DNA of 64,000 bases, from positions 1,005 through 65,004 of the forward strand of contig JBJFFD010000043.1 in NCBI GenBank assembly GCA_051891335.1, given 5' to 3'. The notes under the pieces are model-generated. The model did no database searches. It was not told where the DNA came from and saw nothing but the letters and a program-made list of their open reading frames with translations. Below are positions 18,789 through 27,176 of this stretch, in pieces. Position numbers and translations under genes: made by a program. Position 1 is the stretch's first letter. Every line of letters starts with the position of its first letter. Origin of the DNA: Candidatus Scatovivens sp. (lineage in GTDB: Bacteria > Bacillota > Clostridia > TANB77 > CAG-508).

Positions 18789-18817
18789 TTGACAATTAGC
18801 AAAAATTATTGTATAAT
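18789..18817 (+). promoter_or_regulatory. consensus sigma-A promoter with no ORF behind it
   Basis: TTGACA (18789-18794), 17 nt spacer, TATAAT (18812-18817), with a TG at the extended -10 position. Confidence 0.6.
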
Positions 18818-19132: not shown

Positions 19133-20944
19133 ATGAAAGAAGAAAGAACAAAAAAACAAGATGAAAAAAGTTTTTCTAAAAGAGAAACGGAAACAAATAG
19201 AAAAATTAATTTGAATAATAGTAAAGCTAGAAAAACGAAGAAAATTGTTAAAAAAGAAGAAAGTATTAAAGAGGATTTTAAATTTAAGTCTCAAAAGTTA
19301 AAAATAATTCCATTAGGTGGAATCGAAGAAATAGGAAAAAATATAACGGTTTTTGAATATGAAAATGATATTGTAATAGTAGATTGTGGAGTAGCATTTC
19401 CTGGTGATGATATGCTTGGAATAGATTTAGTAATACCAGATTTTGCATATTTAGAAAAAAATAGAGATAAAATAAAAGGTCTAGTAATTACTCACGGTCA
19501 TGAAGATCATATTGGAGCAATTCCTTATTTATTAAAACAAATAAATATTCCTATTTATGCAACTAAGCTAACAGTTGGATTAATAGAAAATAAATTAGAA
19601 GAACATAAATTAAAAGATTCTACCAAAATAAAAACAGTGAAAGCTGGACAAACTATAAATTTAGGAAAAATGAGAATAGAATTTATAAAAAGTTGTCATA
19701 GTATACCAGATGCTGTAATACTAGCAATTCATACACCTGCTGGAACTGTAGTTCATACTGGAGATTTCAAAATTGATTATACTCCTATAGATAATGAAAG
19801 AATAGACTTAGGAAGATTAGCAGAATTAGGAAATAAAGGAGTTTTAGCCTTAATGTCTGATAGTACTAACTCCGAAAGAAAAGGATATACTATGTCTGAA
19901 AGTTCAGTAGGAGAAGTTTTTGACAAACTATTTTTTAATTGTACAAAAAGAATAGTGGTTGCAACTTTTGCTTCTAATGTTCATAGGGTTCAGCAAATTG
20001 TTAATGCAGCAATTGCAAATAAAAGAAAAATTGCTGTTTGTGGAAGAAGTATGATAAATATGATAGAAACATCTATAAAACTAGGATATATAAAAATGGA
20101 AAAAAATGTATTTATAGATATTGATATGATTAAAAATTATACTGACGATCAATTAGTAATAATAACAACAGGAAGCCAAGGAGAGACGATGTCTGCTTTA
20201 ACTAGAATGGCAAATGGAGAGCATAAAAAGGTAAGTATTACTTCTAATGACTTAGTTATTATTTCAGCAACACCAATTCCTGGAAATGAAAAATTAGTTG
20301 CAAAAGTTATAGATGATTTAATGAAGATAGGAGCAGATGTTGTTTATAGTTCTTTAGCTGATGTTCATGTTTCAGGACATGCTTGCCAAGAAGAACAAAA
20401 ATTAATGCTTTCTTTAGTAAAACCTAAATATTTTATACCAGTTCATGGAGAGTATAGACAATTAATATCTCATAGTGAAACTGCTAGAAAGATAGGAATT
20501 CCAAAAGAAAATATATTTTTGATGACAAATGGTAGAATATTAGAATTAAATGAAGAAGAAGCTAAGCTTACAACATCAGTACAAGTAGGAAAAGTAATGG
20601 TTGATGGATTGGGAGTTGGAGATGTTGGAAATATAGTATTAAGAGATAGACAACATTTGTCTCAAGATGGATTAATAATAATTGTATTAACAATGGATTC
20701 AGCTACAGGAGAAGTTATTGCAGGACCAGACATTATTTCTAGAGGATTTGTATATGTAAGAGAATCTGAAAATTTAATGGATGATGTAAAAAAAGTTATT
20801 GCAAAACAAATAGCATATTGCGAAGAAAATAGAATAACAGATTGGACAACTATAAAAACTCAAATTAAAGATAATTTAAGACAATATATTTATCAAACAA
20901 CAAAAAGAAATCCAATGATTTTACCAATAATAATGGAAGTATAG
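19133..20944 (+). CDS. rnj: ribonuclease J
   Basis: Metallo-beta-lactamase HGHEDHIGA, beta-CASP and C-terminal domain. Lys-rich N-terminal extension of about 50 aa. Confidence 0.93.
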   Translation: MKEERTKKQDEKSFSKRETETNRKINLNNSKARKTKKIVKKEESIKEDFKFKSQKLKIIPLGGIEEIGKNITVFEYENDIVIVDCGVAFPGDDMLGIDLVIPDFAYLEKNRDKIKGLVITHGHEDHIGAIPYLLKQINIPIYATKLTVGLIENKLEEHKLKDSTKIKTVKAGQTINLGKMRIEFIKSCHSIPDAVILAIHTPAGTVVHTGDFKIDYTPIDNERIDLGRLAELGNKGVLALMSDSTNSERKGYTMSESSVGEVFDKLFFNCTKRIVVATFASNVHRVQQIVNAAIANKRKIAVCGRSMINMIETSIKLGYIKMEKNVFIDIDMIKNYTDDQLVIITTGSQGETMSALTRMANGEHKKVSITSNDLVIISATPIPGNEKLVAKVIDDLMKIGADVVYSSLADVHVSGHACQEEQKLMLSLVKPKYFIPVHGEYRQLISHSETARKIGIPKENIFLMTNGRILELNEEEAKLTTSVQVGKVMVDGLGVGDVGNIVLRDRQHLSQDGLIIIVLTMDSATGEVIAGPDIISRGFVYVRESENLMDDVKKVIAKQIAYCEENRITDWTTIKTQIKDNLRQYIYQTTKRNPMILPIIMEV

Positions 20945-20980: not shown

Positions 20981-21025
20981 ATGTAATAGGAAAGTTTGTT
21001 GAACTTTCTATTATATAAAGGCTTC

Positions 21026-21136
21026 GCCAATTTTGTACACAAATTTTATTACATAAAATTTGGCACATGCGAACAAATACGTGGACTTTAAAAATGTTTA
21101 AATAATATAAAATGTTTAAGAAGTCCACTTTTGTTC
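21026..21136. other. GC-enriched double-hairpin intergenic island
   Basis: gccaattttgt..acataaaatttggc (21026-21064) and gaacaaatacgtggactt..aagtccacttttgttc (21071-21136). Confidence 0.4.
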
Positions 21137-21234
21137 TAATAAAACATAATAAATGGCTTTGTAAACATTGTATTTTAGATTGAGTTATGATAAAATAAAT
21201 AACATATTTTAATAGATTTAAGGGAGAAGATTTT

Positions 21235-22860
21235 ATGGATAATAAAGATTTAGCAAATTTAATATTTCCAGATGCAAAACCTATTGCATATTATGAGGAA
21301 AAATATAAAAATAGAGATCTACCAGAAGGTGCTTTAGTAACAAGATACGCACCAAGTCCAACTGGTTTTAATCATATTGGTGGAGTTATGCAAGCAATGA
21401 TTTCTCAAACTATAGCAAGACAAACAGGTGGTGTATCAATAGTAAGAATAGAAGATACAGATCAAAAAAGAGAAGTAAAAAATGCTGCAGAACAAATAAT
21501 GGAAAATTTGAGAGACTTTGATTTATTACCAGACGAATCTATCTGGACTCCTGAAAAAAGTTATGGTCCATATAGACAATCAGAAAGAAGAGAGATATAC
21601 AAAGCTTATGCAAAATCATTAATTGAAAAAGGATTAGCATACCCATGTTTTTGTACTCCGGAAGATTTAGAACAAATAAGATCCAATCAAGAAGCAGCAA
21701 AAGAAAGAACGGGATACTATGGAAAGTGGACAAAATGTAGAAATATGCCAATAGATATGGCATATGAAAAAATAAAAAATGGAGATCCATATATTATTAG
21801 ATTTAAATCAAATGGAAATCCAGATAGAAAAATTAAACATAAAGATGTTATAAAAGGAAATATAGAAATGCCTGAAAATGATCAAGATATAGTAATTATA
21901 AAATCTGACGGATTACCAACATTTCATTTTGCACATGCTATTGATGATCACTTTATGGGAGTGAACTTGGTTAATCGTTCTGATGAATGGATTCCATCAG
22001 TTCCATTGCATTTACAATTATTTTATACGTTAGGTTTTAAACCTCCTAAATATGCTCATACAGCCCCAATGATGAAATTAGACGGAGATTCAAAGAGAAA
22101 ATTAAGTAAAAGAAAAGATCCAGAAGCTAATGCTGCATACTATTGGGAAATTGGTATTCCAAAAGAATCTGTAAAGGAATATTTAATGAATATAGCTAAT
22201 TCAAACTTTGAAATTTGGAGAAAACAAAATCCAGATAAACCTATGGAAGAATTTACATTTGATATAAAGAAAATGGGAGTTGCAGGGGCTTTATTTGATA
22301 TGGTGAAAATGCTTGATGTTTCTAAAAATACAATTTCAAGATTTACTGCTGAAAAAGTATATAATGAAGCTTTAGAATGGGCTAAAAGGTATGATTTAGA
22401 ATTAGTAGAAATGCTTGAAAACAAAGAATATGCTTTAAAAGTGTTAGGAATAGAAAGAGAAAATATAAAACCTAGAAAAGATATAGCAAAATGGTCTGAT
22501 TTGAAAGATTCTATTATTTATATGTATGATGATAAATTTGAAAAATCAGAAGAAGAATATCAATATCAAAAAATTACAGATAAAGAAGAAATTGAAAAAA
22601 TAATAAAAACATATTTTGAAAAATATTATGATGAAAATGATGACAAGCAAACTTGGTTTAATAAAATGAAAGATTTAGCAGAAGAGTTAGGATATGCAAG
22701 AGAAGTTAAAGAATATAAACAAAATCCAGATGCATATAAAGGACATGTTGGAGATATAAGCACGGTTATAAGAGTTAAACTTACTAGAAGATGTAATACA
22801 CCAGATTTATACGAAATAATGCAAGTTTTAGGAAAAGAAAGTATACTTAAAAGAATATAA
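21235..22860 (+). CDS. gltX: glutamate--tRNA ligase (541 aa form)
   Basis: Class I motifs PSPTGFNHIGG and KLSKRK; the catalytic core resembles GluRS. Confidence 0.85.
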   Translation: MDNKDLANLIFPDAKPIAYYEEKYKNRDLPEGALVTRYAPSPTGFNHIGGVMQAMISQTIARQTGGVSIVRIEDTDQKREVKNAAEQIMENLRDFDLLPDESIWTPEKSYGPYRQSERREIYKAYAKSLIEKGLAYPCFCTPEDLEQIRSNQEAAKERTGYYGKWTKCRNMPIDMAYEKIKNGDPYIIRFKSNGNPDRKIKHKDVIKGNIEMPENDQDIVIIKSDGLPTFHFAHAIDDHFMGVNLVNRSDEWIPSVPLHLQLFYTLGFKPPKYAHTAPMMKLDGDSKRKLSKRKDPEANAAYYWEIGIPKESVKEYLMNIANSNFEIWRKQNPDKPMEEFTFDIKKMGVAGALFDMVKMLDVSKNTISRFTAEKVYNEALEWAKRYDLELVEMLENKEYALKVLGIERENIKPRKDIAKWSDLKDSIIYMYDDKFEKSEEEYQYQKITDKEEIEKIIKTYFEKYYDENDDKQTWFNKMKDLAEELGYAREVKEYKQNPDAYKGHVGDISTVIRVKLTRRCNTPDLYEIMQVLGKESILKRI

Positions 22861-22884
22861 CACGAAAAAATGTTTGTAAATATG

Positions 22885-22913
22885 TTGACATGTATTGTTA
22901 AAGAATATATAAT
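22885..22913 (+). promoter_or_regulatory. consensus sigma-A promoter of the small-peptide module
   Basis: TTGACA (22885-22890), 17 nt spacer, TATAAT (22908-22913). Seven nt later the left inverted-repeat arm GAAATAAGAA begins (22921). Confidence 0.6.
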
Positions 22914-22984
22914 TTTATAAGAAATAAGAATAAGCAGAGAATGTGGTATCATCTTATCTTTTAAAGAAAGAGGGGGTGATGCGT

Positions 22985-23122
22985 ATGTTAGAAGAAGCTC
23001 TATTAAAATTACTTACTTTTTCACTTTTCTTAAATATAGCTTTTGCTATCATTTCTTTCTTGTTAATGATGAATTTAATTATCATTACATATAAAGAAAT
23101 ACATAACTCTGCCAATCAATAG
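22985..23122 (+). CDS. 45-aa hydrophobic peptide, type I toxin candidate
   Basis: GGGGG RBS 8 nt before ATG 22985 (alternative ATG at 22979). MLEEALLKLLTFSLFLNIAFAIISFLLMMNLIIITYKEIHNSANQ. The stop codon lies inside the terminator hairpin. Confidence 0.5.
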   Translation: MLEEALLKLLTFSLFLNIAFAIISFLLMMNLIIITYKEIHNSANQ

Positions 23123-23136
23123 AGTTATGTATTTTT
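23097..23136. terminator. bidirectional terminator hairpin shared by the convergent transcripts
   Basis: aaatacataactct gccaatcaat agagttatgtattt. Confidence 0.6.
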
Positions 23137-23188
23137 AATACAAATATTTTATTGATACCACACTTTGTGGTTTCTTATTTCTACTATT

Positions 23189-23217
23189 ATTATAATAAAT
23201 ATTTATTATTTTGTCAA
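23189..23217 (-). promoter_or_regulatory. consensus sigma-A promoter on the minus strand (antisense RNA candidate)
   Basis: The minus strand reads TTGACA (23217-23212), 17 nt spacer, TATAAT (23194-23189). Seven nt later comes GAAATAAGAA (23181-23172). Confidence 0.55.
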
Positions 23218-23284
23218 ATTATATTGTATGTATGGACAAGTCTTTAAGTTTTATTGAAGAATAACAAATAATGAATAAATAAAT

Positions 23285-23312
23285 GTAGGGTTCGATGTGA
23301 ACATCGAACCGC
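23285..23312 (+). repeat. REP-like element: GTAGGG head plus GC-rich hairpin
   Basis: GTAGGGttcgatgtgaacatcgaaccgc. Confidence 0.6.
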
Positions 23313-23374
23313 AAATAAAATAATAAAAAAATCTGTAGTTACAATGGGATGACCTGACACGAAAGAGGTAAAAA

Positions 23375-23551
23375 ATGGAATATAATATTGGTGATTTAGT
23401 AAGGACGAAAAAGCCACATCCATGTGGAAATAAAATTTGGGAGATAACAAGAATTGGTGTAGATTTCAAACTAAAGTGTACAAAATGTGGACATGTAGTA
23501 ACATTGCCAAGAGAAAAAGCATTAAAAACAATAACAAAGAAAATAGATTAA
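23375..23551 (+). CDS. DUF951-family small protein (58 aa)
   Basis: RBS AAGAGG. MEYNIGDLVRTKKPHPCGNKIWEITRIGVDFKLKCTKCGHVVTLPREKA matches the KKPHPCG..W.I.R.G.D..L.C..C pattern. Below the ORF-track cutoff. Confidence 0.7.
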   Translation: MEYNIGDLVRTKKPHPCGNKIWEITRIGVDFKLKCTKCGHVVTLPREKALKTITKKID

Positions 23552-23559
23552 TTTATGGT

Positions 23560-23708
23560 TACGATTCAGATTAAAATATCCTTTATATTTATCGCAAACG
23601 TTTGTAGTGGCGGGCCTTGTGTCCGCCTGTGAAAATAAAATTTACGGGTCTACACGAGGACGACACATATAGTTTCTCTACAATTAAAAATTAGGTCTGA
23701 ACATTAAG
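23560..23708 (+). repeat. composite ~150 bp element (copy A, partly degenerate) with terminal inverted repeats and an internal REP doublet
   Basis: Left ttcagattaaaat..aaacgtttGTAGtggcgggccttgtgtccgcc, right acgggtctacacgaggacgac..aaaattaggtctgaacatt. Homologous along its length to 63011-63166. Confidence 0.6.
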
Positions 23709-23779
23709 ATTTATGTAAAATCTGCAATAAAAACACTTGAAAAAGTAAATAATAAATGATAAAATAATAAATAGTTAAA

Positions 23780-23995
23780 AACGTTTGATTAAGAACTAAG
23801 TAATAAATTAAATTTATTAGAGAGTCTGTGGTTGGTGAAAACAGATTAAATTTATTTATGAAATCTATTCCTAAGAGTTCCTATAAAAATAGGCCGGGTT
23901 GTTACAGGTTATAGTAATAAAATAAGTTATAAAAAAAGGTGGTACCGCGATATAATCGCCCTTAAGCAAATAAAAGCTTAAGGGCGATTTGTTTG
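23780..23995 (+). promoter_or_regulatory. T-box leader (serS)
   Basis: Stem I AGAGAGTC..GGTGAAA, T-box sequence aaaGGTGGTACCGCG (23936-23950), terminator aatcgcccttaagc..gcttaagggcgatt. Confidence 0.9.
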
Positions 23996-24032
23996 CTAAT
24001 TTATAAATATTCATTAGTATAGGAGGTAAATA

Positions 24033-25319
24033 ATGATAGATATCAAATTTTTAAGAGAAAATCCAGAAGCAGTAAAAGAAAATATTAGAAAAAAATTTCA
24101 AAATCATAAATTAGGTTTAGTTGATGAGATTATTGAATTAGATAAACAAAGTAGAGAATTAACTTTAATGTGTGATGATTTAAGAATGAAAAGAAATTCA
24201 GCTAGTAAAGAAATTGGAAATTTAATGGCTCAAGGAAAAAAAGAAGATGCTGAAAATAAAAAAGCAGAAGTTCAAGAAATAAATCAAAAATTAGCTGATA
24301 ATGAGAAAAAAGAAGAGGAATTAAAACAACAAATTAAAGAAAAAATGATGAAAATCCCTAATATTATGCATGAATCTGTTCCAATTGGTGAAGATGATAG
24401 CAAAAATGTTGAAGTTAAAAAGTATGGAGAACCATTAGTACCAGATTATGAAATACCATATCATGCAGATATAATGGAAAGTTTATCAGGTCTGGATTTA
24501 GATTCTGCACGTAGAGTTTCTGGTAATGGATTTTATTATTTAACAGGAGATATTGCAAGACTACATTCAGCAATATTATCTTATGCTAGAGATTTTATGA
24601 TAAATAAAGGATTTACCTATTGTATACCTCCATTTATGATAAGAAAAGATGTAGTTGAAGGTGTAATGAGCTTTGAAGAAATGGATGCAATGATGTATAA
24701 AATAGAAGGAGAAGATTTGTACTTAATAGGTACGAGTGAGCATTCTATGATAGGTAGATTTAAAAATCAAATATTGAAAAAAGAAAATTTACCATATACA
24801 TTAACATCTTATTCTCCTTGTTTTAGAAAAGAAAAGGGAGCTCATGGAATTGAAGAAAGAGGAGTATATAGAATACATCAATTTGAGAAACAAGAAATGG
24901 TTGTAATTTGTGAGCCAGAGGAAAGCTATGTATGGTATGATAAAATGTGGAATTATACAGTAGAATTATTTAGAAGTTTAGATATACCAGTAAGAACTTT
25001 GGAATGTTGTAGTGGGGATTTGGCAGATTTAAAAGCTAAAAGTGTTGATGTAGAAGCCTGGAGCCCTAGACAGAAAAAATATTTTGAAGTTGGAAGTTGT
25101 TCTAATTTAACAGATGCACAAAGCAGAAGATTAGGAATTAGAGTAAAAGGAGAAAAGCAAAATTATTTACCACATACATTAAATAATACTGTTGTAGCTC
25201 CTCCAAGAATGCTAATTGCATTTTTAGAAAATAATTATAAAGAAGATGGAAGTATAAATATACCAGAAGTATTATGGAATTACATGGGAGGCACTAAAAA
25301 ATTAATTTGTAAAAAGTAA
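24033..25319 (+). CDS. serS: serine--tRNA ligase
   Basis: N-terminal coiled-coil arm and class II motifs (FRKEKGAHG, RIHQFEKQE, GSCSN). Confidence 0.95.
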   Translation: MIDIKFLRENPEAVKENIRKKFQNHKLGLVDEIIELDKQSRELTLMCDDLRMKRNSASKEIGNLMAQGKKEDAENKKAEVQEINQKLADNEKKEEELKQQIKEKMMKIPNIMHESVPIGEDDSKNVEVKKYGEPLVPDYEIPYHADIMESLSGLDLDSARRVSGNGFYYLTGDIARLHSAILSYARDFMINKGFTYCIPPFMIRKDVVEGVMSFEEMDAMMYKIEGEDLYLIGTSEHSMIGRFKNQILKKENLPYTLTSYSPCFRKEKGAHGIEERGVYRIHQFEKQEMVVICEPEESYVWYDKMWNYTVELFRSLDIPVRTLECCSGDLADLKAKSVDVEAWSPRQKKYFEVGSCSNLTDAQSRRLGIRVKGEKQNYLPHTLNNTVVAPPRMLIAFLENNYKEDGSINIPEVLWNYMGGTKKLICKK

Positions 25320-25339: not shown

Positions 25340-26245
25340 ATGAGAAATTTCAATGAAATGTATGAAAAAATATTTAAAGAATATAATCAATATTTAGAAA
25401 AATTAAGAGTAAAAACATATATATATACAATTATATTTGGAGTATTTCTTGCTTTTGTTTATTACTATTTTTTTAAAGATTTTCCATCTAAGTATAAACA
25501 TTTTCTAATTGTAAGTATTTTTATAATTTGTTTTTGTTTTTATAAAATTTTATTAAAAGGAAAAAATACAAGGATTTTTAAAAACGGTGTTATAAATTAT
25601 TTAGTAAAAGGGTATGATTCGGGATTAAATTATAACCCTAATGGTGCTATTTCGAAGATAACATATGATATGGGCTTTTTTGAACAAAACTATAATATTA
25701 TAAAATCAGAAGATACTGTAAAAGGAACACTAAAAGAAGGAATAAATTTGCAATTAGGTGAAATTGAGCTATATAATGAAACTATAAATGAAGAACTTGG
25801 GATAAGAGATAAAACAAAAGTTTTCCAAGGAATATTTGCTAAAATAATATTAAATAAAGATTGTTTTTTATCAAAAATAAAAATAAGAAATAATAGATTA
25901 GTTAATTTTTCACTAGAAAAAGATAAAAAAGTGGAACTAGAGTCTATCGAATTTGAAAAACATTTTGATTTTTATGCAGATAATAAAATAGAGGCTCTTA
26001 AACTTTTCACAGTAGATGTAATAGAAAAAATTAATTATTTTAGAGAAAAGTATAATGTTGATTATGAAATGACTATATATAAAAATGAAATCTATATAAG
26101 ATTTCAAAAGAAAAACTCTTTTGAAATTGTAATTGGCAAAAATACACTAGATTATAATATGCTATATGAATATTATAAAATTATAGAAATGATAGGAAAT
26201 ATAGGAATATATTTTAATGATATTATAGAAAAAATGAATATATAG
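25340..26245 (+). CDS. membrane protein, DUF3137-like (tentative); first of a tandem paralogue pair
   Basis: Two N-terminal TM helices and a conserved C-terminal half shared with 26291-27176. Confidence 0.5.
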   Translation: MRNFNEMYEKIFKEYNQYLEKLRVKTYIYTIIFGVFLAFVYYYFFKDFPSKYKHFLIVSIFIICFCFYKILLKGKNTRIFKNGVINYLVKGYDSGLNYNPNGAISKITYDMGFFEQNYNIIKSEDTVKGTLKEGINLQLGEIELYNETINEELGIRDKTKVFQGIFAKIILNKDCFLSKIKIRNNRLVNFSLEKDKKVELESIEFEKHFDFYADNKIEALKLFTVDVIEKINYFREKYNVDYEMTIYKNEIYIRFQKKNSFEIVIGKNTLDYNMLYEYYKIIEMIGNIGIYFNDIIEKMNI

Positions 26246-26290: not shown

Positions 26291-27176
26291 ATGAGAAATT
26301 TTAATAAAGCATATGAAAGAGTTATAAAAAAATATAATGAATATTTAAAAAAAATAAAAGTAACAAGCTATATATATACTTTTTTAGTAGGTATTTTTGT
26401 TTTAAGTACATCTTACTTTATGTTAATAGATTTTATATACGATAAAAAAAATTTAATAATTTTATGTATTACTTTCTTTATATGTTTTATTTTTTGGAAT
26501 ATTTACATTAAAGAGAAAAACACAATAGTTTTAAAGTATGGTGTTATAAATGAGTTAGTCAAAGAATATGATTTGGGATTAAAATATAATCCTAAAGGAA
26601 CTATTATAAAAGAAGTATATATGCTTGGTGAGTTTGACGATCGGATTTGATGGCTTTATAGTATCAGAAGATACAATAAATGGAACATTAAAAGAAGGAA
26701 TAGATTTACAAATAGGAGAAGTTTTAAAAGATGGTTGGGACTCTGCACAAGTATTTTCTAGAATAAAATTAAATGTAGATTGTAATTTGTCAAAAATAAA
26801 AATAAGAAATAATAGTGAAGTACAATTCTTTATAGAAAAAGATAGGAAAGTAGAATTAGAGTCTGCTGAGTTTGAAAAATACTATGATTTTTATGCAGAT
26901 AATAAAATAGAGGCTCTTCAACTATTTACAACAGAAGTAATTGAGAAAATTAATTATTTTAGAGAAAAGTATAATATTTGTTTTGAAATGACTATATATA
27001 AAAATGAAATTTATATAAGATTCTGGAAAAATAATTTTTTCGAGCTTGCAATTGGTAAGGATATACTAGATTATAATATGTTATATGAATATTATAAAGT
27101 TATAGAAATGATAGGAAATATAGGAATATATTTTAATGATACTATACAAAAAATAAATTTAAGTAATGGAGAATAA
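26291..27176 (+). CDS. paralogue of 25340-26245, two frames joined at in-frame CGG 26642
   Basis: ORFs 26291-26650 and 26625-27176. Skipping C26642 gives YMLGEFDDGFDGFIVSEDTINGTLKEG, colinear with YDMGFFEQNYNIIKSEDTVKGTLKEG in the neighbour. Confidence 0.5.
26642..26645 (+). other. frame-break site: in-frame CGG with the continuation in the overlapping +1 GGA
   Basis: gac gat CGG att TGA in the 0 frame. The +1 frame reads GGA TTT GAT GGC. Confidence 0.5.

Follow-up and report, generated by a model that had tools for sequence, protein, structure and literature searches.

A probable type I toxin-antitoxin-like cassette with covarying messenger RNA ends in Candidatus Scatovivens

Which kind of element is formed by two perfect promoters that face each other around a very short open reading frame (ORF)? 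This question is raised by an insert of 330 bases located between two housekeeping genes on contig JBJFFD010000043.1 of Candidatus Scatovivens sp.; the stretch analysed here, called the window throughout, comprises 64,000 nucleotides (nt) of this contig. The insert is predicted to contain the gene for a 45-residue membrane-helix peptide and, facing it, the gene for an antisense RNA of approximately 92 nt. A first-pass annotation of the DNA had proposed a type I toxin-antitoxin locus, and our results support this proposal: judged by its sequence and that of its relatives, the segment is likely to be an intact and self-contained type I toxin-antitoxin-like cassette. The literature and databases searched yielded no description of this cassette family. 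The interpretation is carried by a conserved peptide under selection, by a convergent small RNA gene with its own promoter and terminator, and by a ribosome site on the peptide messenger RNA (mRNA) that is predicted to be sequestered. It is further supported by the state of the copies, which are found singly, in tandem and as decayed remnants that have kept the small RNA only.

The cassette and its relatives

The two promoters both match the TTGACA-17-TATAAT consensus in 12 of 12 positions, as the first-pass annotation had described, and they are the only perfect matches in a scan of the surrounding 5 kb. The window as a whole contains three perfect matches (0.06 expected from shuffles; none of 100 shuffles reached three). 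The third is located at 18789-18817 on the plus strand, approximately 315 nt upstream of the start of the RNase J ORF (19133). Also verified were the hydrophobic ORF of 45 amino acids with its upstream ribosome binding site and the hairpin (14 of 14 positions complementary) that holds the stop codon; the latter (23120-23122) straddles the loop and the 3′ arm of the hairpin. Each promoter is followed by the arm GAAATAAGAA, which begins 7 nt past the respective −10 box, that is at the expected transcription start, and after a further 11 or 9 nt by the arm TGTGGTATCA. The arms had been described as 10 + 10 base pairs (bp); these stretches are indeed present, but the complementarity is not limited to them and comprises 26 bp if G·U pairs are included. 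The arrangement goes beyond chance, because dozens of other genomes contain the whole layout, with compensatory changes. The coordinates are given in Table 1.

The first homologous cassettes were found in two congeners, where they lie in unrelated contexts and encode different peptides. The arms change in concert: both read GAAATAAGAA in the window copy, GAAATGAGAA in genome G007 and GAAAATAAGGAA in genome G048, and the stem of the central hairpin shows a compensatory A-T to T-A swap in relatives. A pattern for the 5′ end of the small RNA matched in 6 of 75 genomes of the genus, and its reversed control in none. Applied to contigs of one genome per species, the pattern identified 119 loci, mostly in metagenome-assembled genomes (MAGs) labelled uncultured Clostridia or Clostridium sp.; these MAGs come from rabbit, goat, mouse and human gut. 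Matches of high GC content were regarded as chance and filtered out, which left 92 unique AT-rich copies, nearly all of them from gut MAGs with the label uncultured Clostridia. Complete cassettes make up 56 of these; they encode 54 distinct peptides of 34-45 amino acids at a fixed distance from the small RNA, and Shine-Dalgarno (SD)-like purine runs lie at an equal distance from the start codon in all 56. The members of the family are related, and counts such as 55 of 56 overstate their independence. At least four peptide subtypes can be distinguished: MLEE...YKENHISANQ, which includes the window copy, MIEA...ILSK, MIETNY...LSKSK and M[VI]E...LLHRQ. A profile search with the peptide found at least 150 clusters at 90% identity, none of which is named; a Pfam domain occurs in one long outlier only. 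The family itself is without a match in Pfam, NCBIfam and Rfam.

In a sample of the order, the strict 5′-end pattern was present in 31 of 275 genomes of the taxonomic family to which the window belongs versus none of 125 genomes from four sister families. Strong matches of a profile model to 150 genomes across the class were confined to the same taxonomic family. Two weak matches of the class-wide search outside this taxonomic family were inspected: L188 is an ordinary terminator and was rejected, and L187 may at most be a distant or decayed relative. The strict pattern under-counts, as illustrated by genome G092, which scores zero with the pattern and contains four copies according to the profile model. 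The small RNA profile R1 is sequence-only: RNAalifold returned no consensus pairs, because MAFFT put the variable linker and the loops out of register. In samples from humans, mice, rabbits and ruminants, the family seems to be common among uncultured gut Clostridia with small genomes. As small genes that lack annotation, the cassettes would be worth adding to the gene lists of these MAGs.

A genome-wide search for further copies had been suggested at the outset. In the genome to which the window belongs (1.38 Mb, 25.8% GC, 49 contigs), blastn with the cassette and tblastn with the peptide gave one copy. This was misleading, since the profile search found three divergent members on contig C44, resulting in four copies altogether. 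Blastn against 40 relatives returned mostly AT-rich promoter look-alikes. The three members on C44 are located within 2 kb, at 4195-4982 on the minus strand and at 5921-6195 on the plus strand. Two of them form a tandem pair 507 nt apart with an identical peptide of 37 amino acids (MVKVILFFILSLMFSLTLNVALTAVLYKNWVDKQLHK) and different central hairpins; the third belongs to the ...FLSK subtype (MIESILLETICLLSFGLIAVTFVAIALIITLVIFLSK). The 5′-3′ panhandle discussed below is present in all three. Another array, at L049 (CALXFC010000030.1, 5136-6204), consists of three tandem cassettes with a spacing of approximately 520 bp and a different peptide subtype in each. Decayed copies (L050, L053, L094, L107, L111, L159, L037/L102, L034, L089 and L142) have kept the small RNA gene with its consensus promoter. 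In the decayed copies, the ORF has been lost by internal deletion, loss of the start codon, an in-frame stop or a frameshift.

Table 1. Features of the cassette in the window and the basis on which they were placed
Feature	Position	Strand	Detail or basis
Peptide mRNA promoter	22885-22913	+	TTGACA 22885-22890, 17-nt spacer, TATAAT 22908-22913; 12/12 against consensus
Predicted mRNA start	A22920 or G22921	+	From promoter position
Antisense RNA promoter	23189-23217	−	TTGACA 23217-23212, 17-nt spacer, TATAAT 23194-23189; 12/12
Predicted antisense RNA start	23182 or 23181	−	From promoter position
Arm GAAATAAGAA, both occurrences	22921-22930; 23181-23172	+; −	
Arm TGTGGTATCA, both occurrences	22942-22951; 23162-23153	+; −	
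mRNA 5′ arm	22921-22953	+	Helix 1 22921-22930 (GAAATAAGAA), helix 2 22934-22939 (GCAGAG), helix 3 22942-22951 (TGTGGTATCA)
Alternative-pairing segment TATCATC	22947-22953	+	Can pair with GGTGATG of the ribosome-site region; emerges in the fold when the 3′ end is blocked
SD sequence GAGGGGGTGA and start codon	22970-22979; ATG 22985-22987	+	GAGGGGGTGA 6 nt upstream of ATG; read from the sequence
Peptide ORF (putative toxin), 45 amino acids, MLEEALLKLLTFSLFLNIAFAIISFLLMMNLIIITYKEIHNSANQ	22985-23122	+	ORF list; open frame
Central 14-bp hairpin	23097-23134	both	23097-23110 pairs with 23121-23134, 14/14 complementary; perfect inverted repeat
mRNA 3′ arm	23153-23181	+	Small hairpin ACCACACTTTGTGGT (23157-23171; plus-strand terminator scan) and T-rich tail TTCTTATTTC (23172-23181); putative mRNA terminator
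Antisense small RNA (putative antitoxin), approximately 92 nt	23088-23181	−	3′ end predicted

The symmetric arms and the extent of the mRNA

The arms were analysed in modules that begin at the mRNA start and end opposite the start of the small RNA; in the window copy, such a module is 261 nt long. In this copy, 22921-22951 pairs with 23153-23181 in three helices of 10, 6 and 10 bp with two G·U pairs; the duplex (−31.4 kcal/mol) is part of the minimum-energy fold. The same holds for the relatives: a panhandle with at least 15 long-range pairs was found in the minimum-energy folds of 54 of the 56 modules, and the duplex between approximately the first 32 and the last 32 nt has a family mean of −36.3 kcal/mol versus −13.1 kcal/mol for shuffled arms. 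In an alignment of the joined arms, helix 1 is 98.6% paired (slid controls: 50-72%); four of its 11 pairs are changed on both sides, and its covariation score was reached by none of 500 shuffles. In helix 3, the lengths of the T-run and the A-run co-vary and match almost always. The earlier suggestion that the 5′ and 3′ ends of a read-through mRNA could pair is thus supported, and the symmetry seems to serve mainly this pairing.

The differences between the mRNA 5′ arm and the 5′ end of the small RNA are almost exclusively changes from A to G or from C to U, giving G·U pairs in the plus-strand RNA. Altogether, 159 G·U pairs were counted, and in helix 1, 27 differences are compatible with G·U pairing versus one that is incompatible. 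In 55 of 56 modules, the mRNA strand forms a stronger panhandle than the opposite strand does (mean difference 8.2 kcal/mol); all members of the window's subfamily are among them (window copy: −31.4 versus −25.3 kcal/mol). Such a strand bias is not predicted by a DNA palindrome or a shared protein-binding site, but it is predicted if selection acts on a plus-strand RNA with both arms. An RNA containing both arms must read through the central hairpin, at least partly. There is good support for a functional mRNA of approximately 261 nt, which would reach from 22921 to about 23181 and end at the small hairpin 23157-23171 and its T-rich tail; the antisense RNA gene would consequently be nested in the 3′ untranslated region (UTR) of this mRNA. 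The symmetric arms are best read as the 5′-3′ panhandle of this predicted transcript.

At least six T residues within the 9 nt past the central hairpin are present on the minus strand in 52 of 56 copies and on the plus strand in 22 of 56. The small hairpin AACCAC-loop-GTGGTT with its T-rich tail is kept in all 56 complete copies. Across the family, these sequences suggest that the central hairpin is mainly the terminator of the small RNA; in the window copy it is probably a partial mRNA terminator as well. The first-pass annotation had described this hairpin as a shared bidirectional terminator, which suits the window copy with its T-rich sequence on both sides, but family-wide the mRNA likely runs on to the small hairpin.

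A shorter form of the system would resemble par of the Enterococcus faecalis plasmid pAD1 (Fst mRNA RNA I, antitoxin RNA II): both RNAs would end at the shared central hairpin and overlap by approximately 45 nt, and the symmetry of the arms would have no role in RNA pairing or one restricted to rare read-through. The T-rich flanks on both sides of the window's hairpin are in keeping with this, as are the 22 relatives with at least six T residues on the plus side. The par locus likewise has two small convergent units, a central, possibly bidirectional terminator and a sequence repeated at the 5′ end of both RNAs. Its repeats are direct in the DNA, so that its RNAs have complementary 5′ ends through which they pair. 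In the cassette, in contrast, the repeats are inverted, both RNAs start with an identical 5′ sequence and cannot pair there, and the complementarity between small RNA and 5′ UTR is not in excess (−26.7 versus −25.8 kcal/mol for shuffled sequences). An Rfam scan of 21000-25000 (E ≤ 1) found only the T-box of serS and no RNAII, and no Fst match was obtained in Pfam and NCBIfam. A good plus-strand T-run past the hairpin is missing in 34 of the 56 copies. Furthermore, it is difficult to account for the strand-specific G·U pairs in 55 of 56 modules and for the compensatory changes if the 3′ arm is absent from the plus-strand RNA. We therefore consider it unlikely that both RNAs end at the central hairpin.

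The peptide and the antisense RNA gene

Homologues of the window peptide are 58-69% identical at equal length. The family as a whole is under purifying selection, with a ratio of non-synonymous to synonymous differences (pN/pS) of 0.47 in 192 pairs; differences at the first, second and third codon positions amount to 1607, 942 and 2202, a bias in the order 3>1>2. By these substitution patterns the ORF is coding. AlphaFold2, supplied with 29 homologues, predicts one continuous helix of residues 2-44 (predicted local distance difference test score 94.6), and the hydropathy in a 19-residue window peaks at 2.49, which fits a single membrane span. Most family peptides have an acidic residue at position 3, and most end in a basic or polar tail. 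In sequence and predicted structure the product thus corresponds to what is generally expected of a type I toxin: a small (<60 amino acids), hydrophobic membrane-helix peptide encoded on a short dedicated mRNA. Four family peptides were searched against Pfam and NCBIfam (E ≤ 10) without a meaningful match; neither TxpA/BsrG (holin-like toxin) nor Fst was found. A profile search of PDB sequences had SecG as its sole match, which was judged to be chance. With weaker support, the peptide is presumed to be membrane-damaging when made.

The minus-strand RNA had been predicted as a transcript of approximately 90 nt that is antisense to the 3′ end of the peptide mRNA, in agreement with our prediction; it is fully complementary to the 3′ UTR of the mRNA together with the final 35 nt of the ORF. 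From 5′ to 3′ it is predicted to consist of a single-stranded tail of approximately 7 nt (the first bases of GAAAUAAGAA), the small hairpin, a linker, the terminator hairpin and a U-rich tail. A minus-strand segment of 96 nt folds with −23.5 kcal/mol (z-score −4.0), and homologous small RNAs align across species. At the sequence level, the cassette thus has the separate antisense RNA gene of type I systems, with its own promoter and terminator and complementary to the toxin mRNA. Among the 56 complete copies, the antisense promoter matches the consensus in 12 of 12 positions in 44 and in 11 of 12 in another 11. The mRNA promoter has a mean of 8.1 of 12 and is weaker than the antisense promoter in 47 of 56; in the window's subfamily with peptides of 45 amino acids it is perfect too, so that both promoters are perfect there. 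An antisense promoter with at least 11 of 12 matches is also present in 28 of the other 36 AT-rich matches, which include the ORF-deleted and otherwise decayed copies and a few chance matches.

Could the peptide be a harmless small membrane protein, regulatory or accessory in function, that is tuned by a cis-antisense RNA outside any toxin-antitoxin system? It has no likeness to any known toxin, its toxicity is only presumed, and purifying selection fits any functional peptide. However, many copies have a destroyed ORF and yet retain the antisense gene with its promoter, which is the pattern expected if the peptide is harmful and the RNA protective. The antisense promoter is also systematically stronger, the ribosome site is predicted to be heavily sequestered, and the cassettes occur in several copies, in tandem and without synteny. 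Such traits are characteristic of type I toxin loci and not of housekeeping small proteins, which makes a harmless peptide quite improbable.

A miniature inverted-repeat mobile element or a DNA-level palindrome, with arms that act as terminal inverted repeats and are kept alike by DNA processes and with an incidental ORF and incidental promoters, would suit an insert that lies in a variable spacer and is found in many contexts, but this is hardly credible: blastn found no second near-identical copy in the genome, the other three being paralogues that have diverged and encode different peptides; the arms are located internally to the promoters and not at the ends of an element; the ORF is conserved as a protein; differences between the arms favour G·U on one strand, a bias not expected from a mechanism acting on DNA; the cassette has no match in phage and plasmid collections; and the numerous, nearly identical non-coding copies between terminal inverted repeats that characterise such elements were not found. 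Conserved arms around an unconserved ORF had been named beforehand as the sign of such an element, and the intact copies show the opposite.

Proposed mechanism, known systems and surroundings

Sequence and comparison establish two convergent units and a small RNA complementary to the last 92 nt or so of the long mRNA; the further steps of the mechanism are inferred. In type I systems, a stable toxin mRNA is usually paired with an abundant, labile antitoxin. In the cassette, one consensus promoter would drive the mRNA for the single-helix membrane peptide and the opposing one the RNA of approximately 92 nt that ends at the central hairpin. The first 31 nt or so of the mRNA would pair with the last 29 or so to form the panhandle; with both ends buried, exonucleases should be slowed and the toxin mRNA should be long-lived. 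The antisense RNA, which has a free 5′ tail and in most relatives the stronger promoter, would keep the peptide off. Its first approximately 30 nt are nearly identical to the 5′ end of the mRNA, yet they are fully Watson-Crick complementary to the 3′ arm, and the 40-nt duplex of small RNA leader and 3′ arm has an average of −66.7 kcal/mol versus approximately −36 kcal/mol for the G·U-containing panhandle. Since the leader pairs with the 3′ arm better than the G·U-weakened 5′ arm does, it should displace the 5′ end of the mRNA. This would result in a duplex of approximately 90 bp, a candidate substrate of RNase III.

As a weaker inference, the freed 5′ arm may clamp the ribosome site, so that antisense binding at the 3′ end would shut translation at the 5′ end. 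Anti-SD segments are present in the 5′ arm as TATCATC/GGTGATG in the window copy, GCCTCC/GGAGG in another subtype and GCCACC/GGTGGT in a third. As is typical of type I mRNAs, the ribosome site is sequestered in silico, with a mean opening energy of 10.1 kcal/mol and an SD unpaired probability of 0.13. When the last 90 nt were blocked, the SD sequence paired more strongly with the first 40 nt (0.72, up from 0.32), and the mean opening energy of positions −13 to +3 rose to 12.4 kcal/mol, with an increase in 50 of 56 modules. For the window copy, the opening energy increased from 6.9 to 12.7 kcal/mol; the nascent 5′ fragment has 12.3 kcal/mol. A panhandle that fully exposes the ribosome site was considered as well and is weakly supported, the site being mostly paired in all predicted states.

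These folds are compatible with a three-way RNA switch in which the antisense RNA is a molecular mimic of the mRNA 5′ end, a model that we put forward tentatively and regard as possible rather than probable. The 5′ arm would clamp the ribosome site during transcription; the completed 3′ arm would then capture the 5′ arm through the G·U-weakened panhandle, loosening the ribosome site and stabilising the mRNA. The antisense RNA, carrying the same leader in perfect Watson-Crick form, would finally take over the 3′ arm, upon which the 5′ arm would return to the ribosome site and the duplex would be cut. The net effect would be that binding at the far 3′ end controls translation at the 5′ end by strand exchange. 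To our knowledge, no type I system has been described as working in this way. If true, the switch would be a natural RNA device of compact design, and it would add a new case in which a 3′ UTR event is relayed to a ribosome site.

Several points weigh against the toxin-antitoxin interpretation or parts of it. The putative toxin matches no known toxin family by sequence, and its toxicity remains presumed. The window copy has TTTTT past the central hairpin on the plus strand too, and many mRNAs may stop there without the 3′ arm. In the folding models, the ribosome site is largely closed in every predicted state (unpaired probability 0.13 versus 0.09; mean opening energy at least 10 kcal/mol), and the family-wide gating effect is modest at 2.2 kcal/mol.

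Full-length toxin mRNAs that are closed by long-distance 5′-3′ pairing and have a sequestered ribosome site are reportedly made by hok/sok of plasmid R1, and the same is said of aapA1/IsoA1 of Helicobacter pylori. The cassette is alike in both respects; its long-distance pairing is supported in silico by covariation and rests on the predicted 3′ end of the mRNA. The two known systems are Gram-negative, their antisense RNAs pair with the 5′ part of the mRNA, and trimming of the 3′ end activates translation. In the cassette, by contrast, the antisense RNA would pair with the panhandle's own 3′ strand, and the peptides are unrelated. Pairing of the antisense RNA with the 5′ leader or initiation region is not indicated, the gene being located at the 3′ end and the complementarity to the 5′ UTR not being in excess.

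The first-pass annotation had likened the locus to the Firmicute systems fst/RNAII, txpA/RatA and bsrG/SR4. The comparison applies to the layout of the latter two and fails for fst/RNAII, where the inverted repeats and identical 5′ ends found here do not fit. The Gram-positive type I layout and an extensive duplex suggesting RNase III-dependent decay are shared with txpA/RatA, bsrG/SR4, bsrE/SR5 and yonT/SR6 of Bacillus subtilis. In the txpA/RatA and bsrG/SR4 group the antisense RNA lies on the 3′ side (PMC8594479, PMC6563280), and the cassette layout is closest to this group, with a convergent antisense RNA that overlaps the 3′ part of the toxin mRNA (the end of the ORF and the 3′ UTR). SR4 is described as acting on both mRNA decay and translation (PMC6563280); similarly, the ribosome site of the cassette is predicted to tighten when the 3′ end is occupied. 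The cassette differs from the B. subtilis systems in having no similarity in peptide or RNA sequence, the peptide falling outside the TxpA/BsrG toxins. Its antisense RNA apparently lies wholly within the mRNA 3′ UTR, it has a covarying 5′-3′ panhandle whose 3′ strand is the antisense target, and both its RNAs start with nearly identical sequences of approximately 30 nt. The cassette would thus unite two designs that have so far been separate, the 3′-overlapping antitoxin of Gram-positive bacteria and the fold-back toxin mRNA of hok/aapA1, with the added twist of a leader common to antitoxin and mRNA.

Toxin peptides of Clostridioides difficile have a charged, lysine-rich C-terminus. According to a 2019 review, characterised clostridial type I systems are those of C. 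difficile only (PMC6563280); they comprise CD2517.1-RCd8, CD2907.1-RCd9, CD0956.2-RCd10 and prophage copies, with convergent overlapping genes and peptides of 50-53 amino acids (PMC6563280). The cassette resembles them in being clostridial, in its convergent overlapping genes with long complementary regions and in its unannotated small hydrophobic peptide (PMC6563280). It differs in the length of the peptide (45 versus 50-53 amino acids), and neither its peptide nor its RNA matched a family in Pfam, NCBIfam or Rfam; a panhandle or shared leader is not described for the C. difficile systems in the review (PMC6563280).

The insert is flanked by the genes for RNase J (19133-20944) and a class I Glu/Gln-type tRNA synthetase (21235-22860) on one side and by DUF951 (23375-23551), followed by a T-box and serS, on the other. 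The gltX-DUF951 gene pair is conserved across the genus, and its spacer is only 4-170 nt long in most species; the cassette is therefore an accessory insert. The spacer is an insertion hot spot, as unrelated inserts of 400-650 bp are present in several congeners (L164, L165, L168, L171 and L181). Those of L164, L165, L168 and L171 begin with a promoter-like ...TATGGTATAAT or similar sequence and hold an ORF of approximately 100-130 amino acids. Between the cassette and DUF951 lies a perfect hairpin of 10 bp (23289-23310; GGTTCGATGT / ACATCGAACC) that is T-rich on its minus-strand side. The T-box leader ahead of serS (24033-25319) was found at 23775-23966 on the plus strand; it covers the full model length and scores 80.9 bits (E=4e-17) against an Rfam gathering score of 93. 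Further downstream, the adjacent plus-strand ORFs 25340-26245 and 26291-26650 (301 and 119 amino acids) have much alike N-termini (MRNFNEMYEKIFKEYNQYLEKLRV... and MRNFNKAYERVIKKYNEYLKKIKV...); by sequence they look like a tandem paralogue pair, one member of which is possibly truncated.

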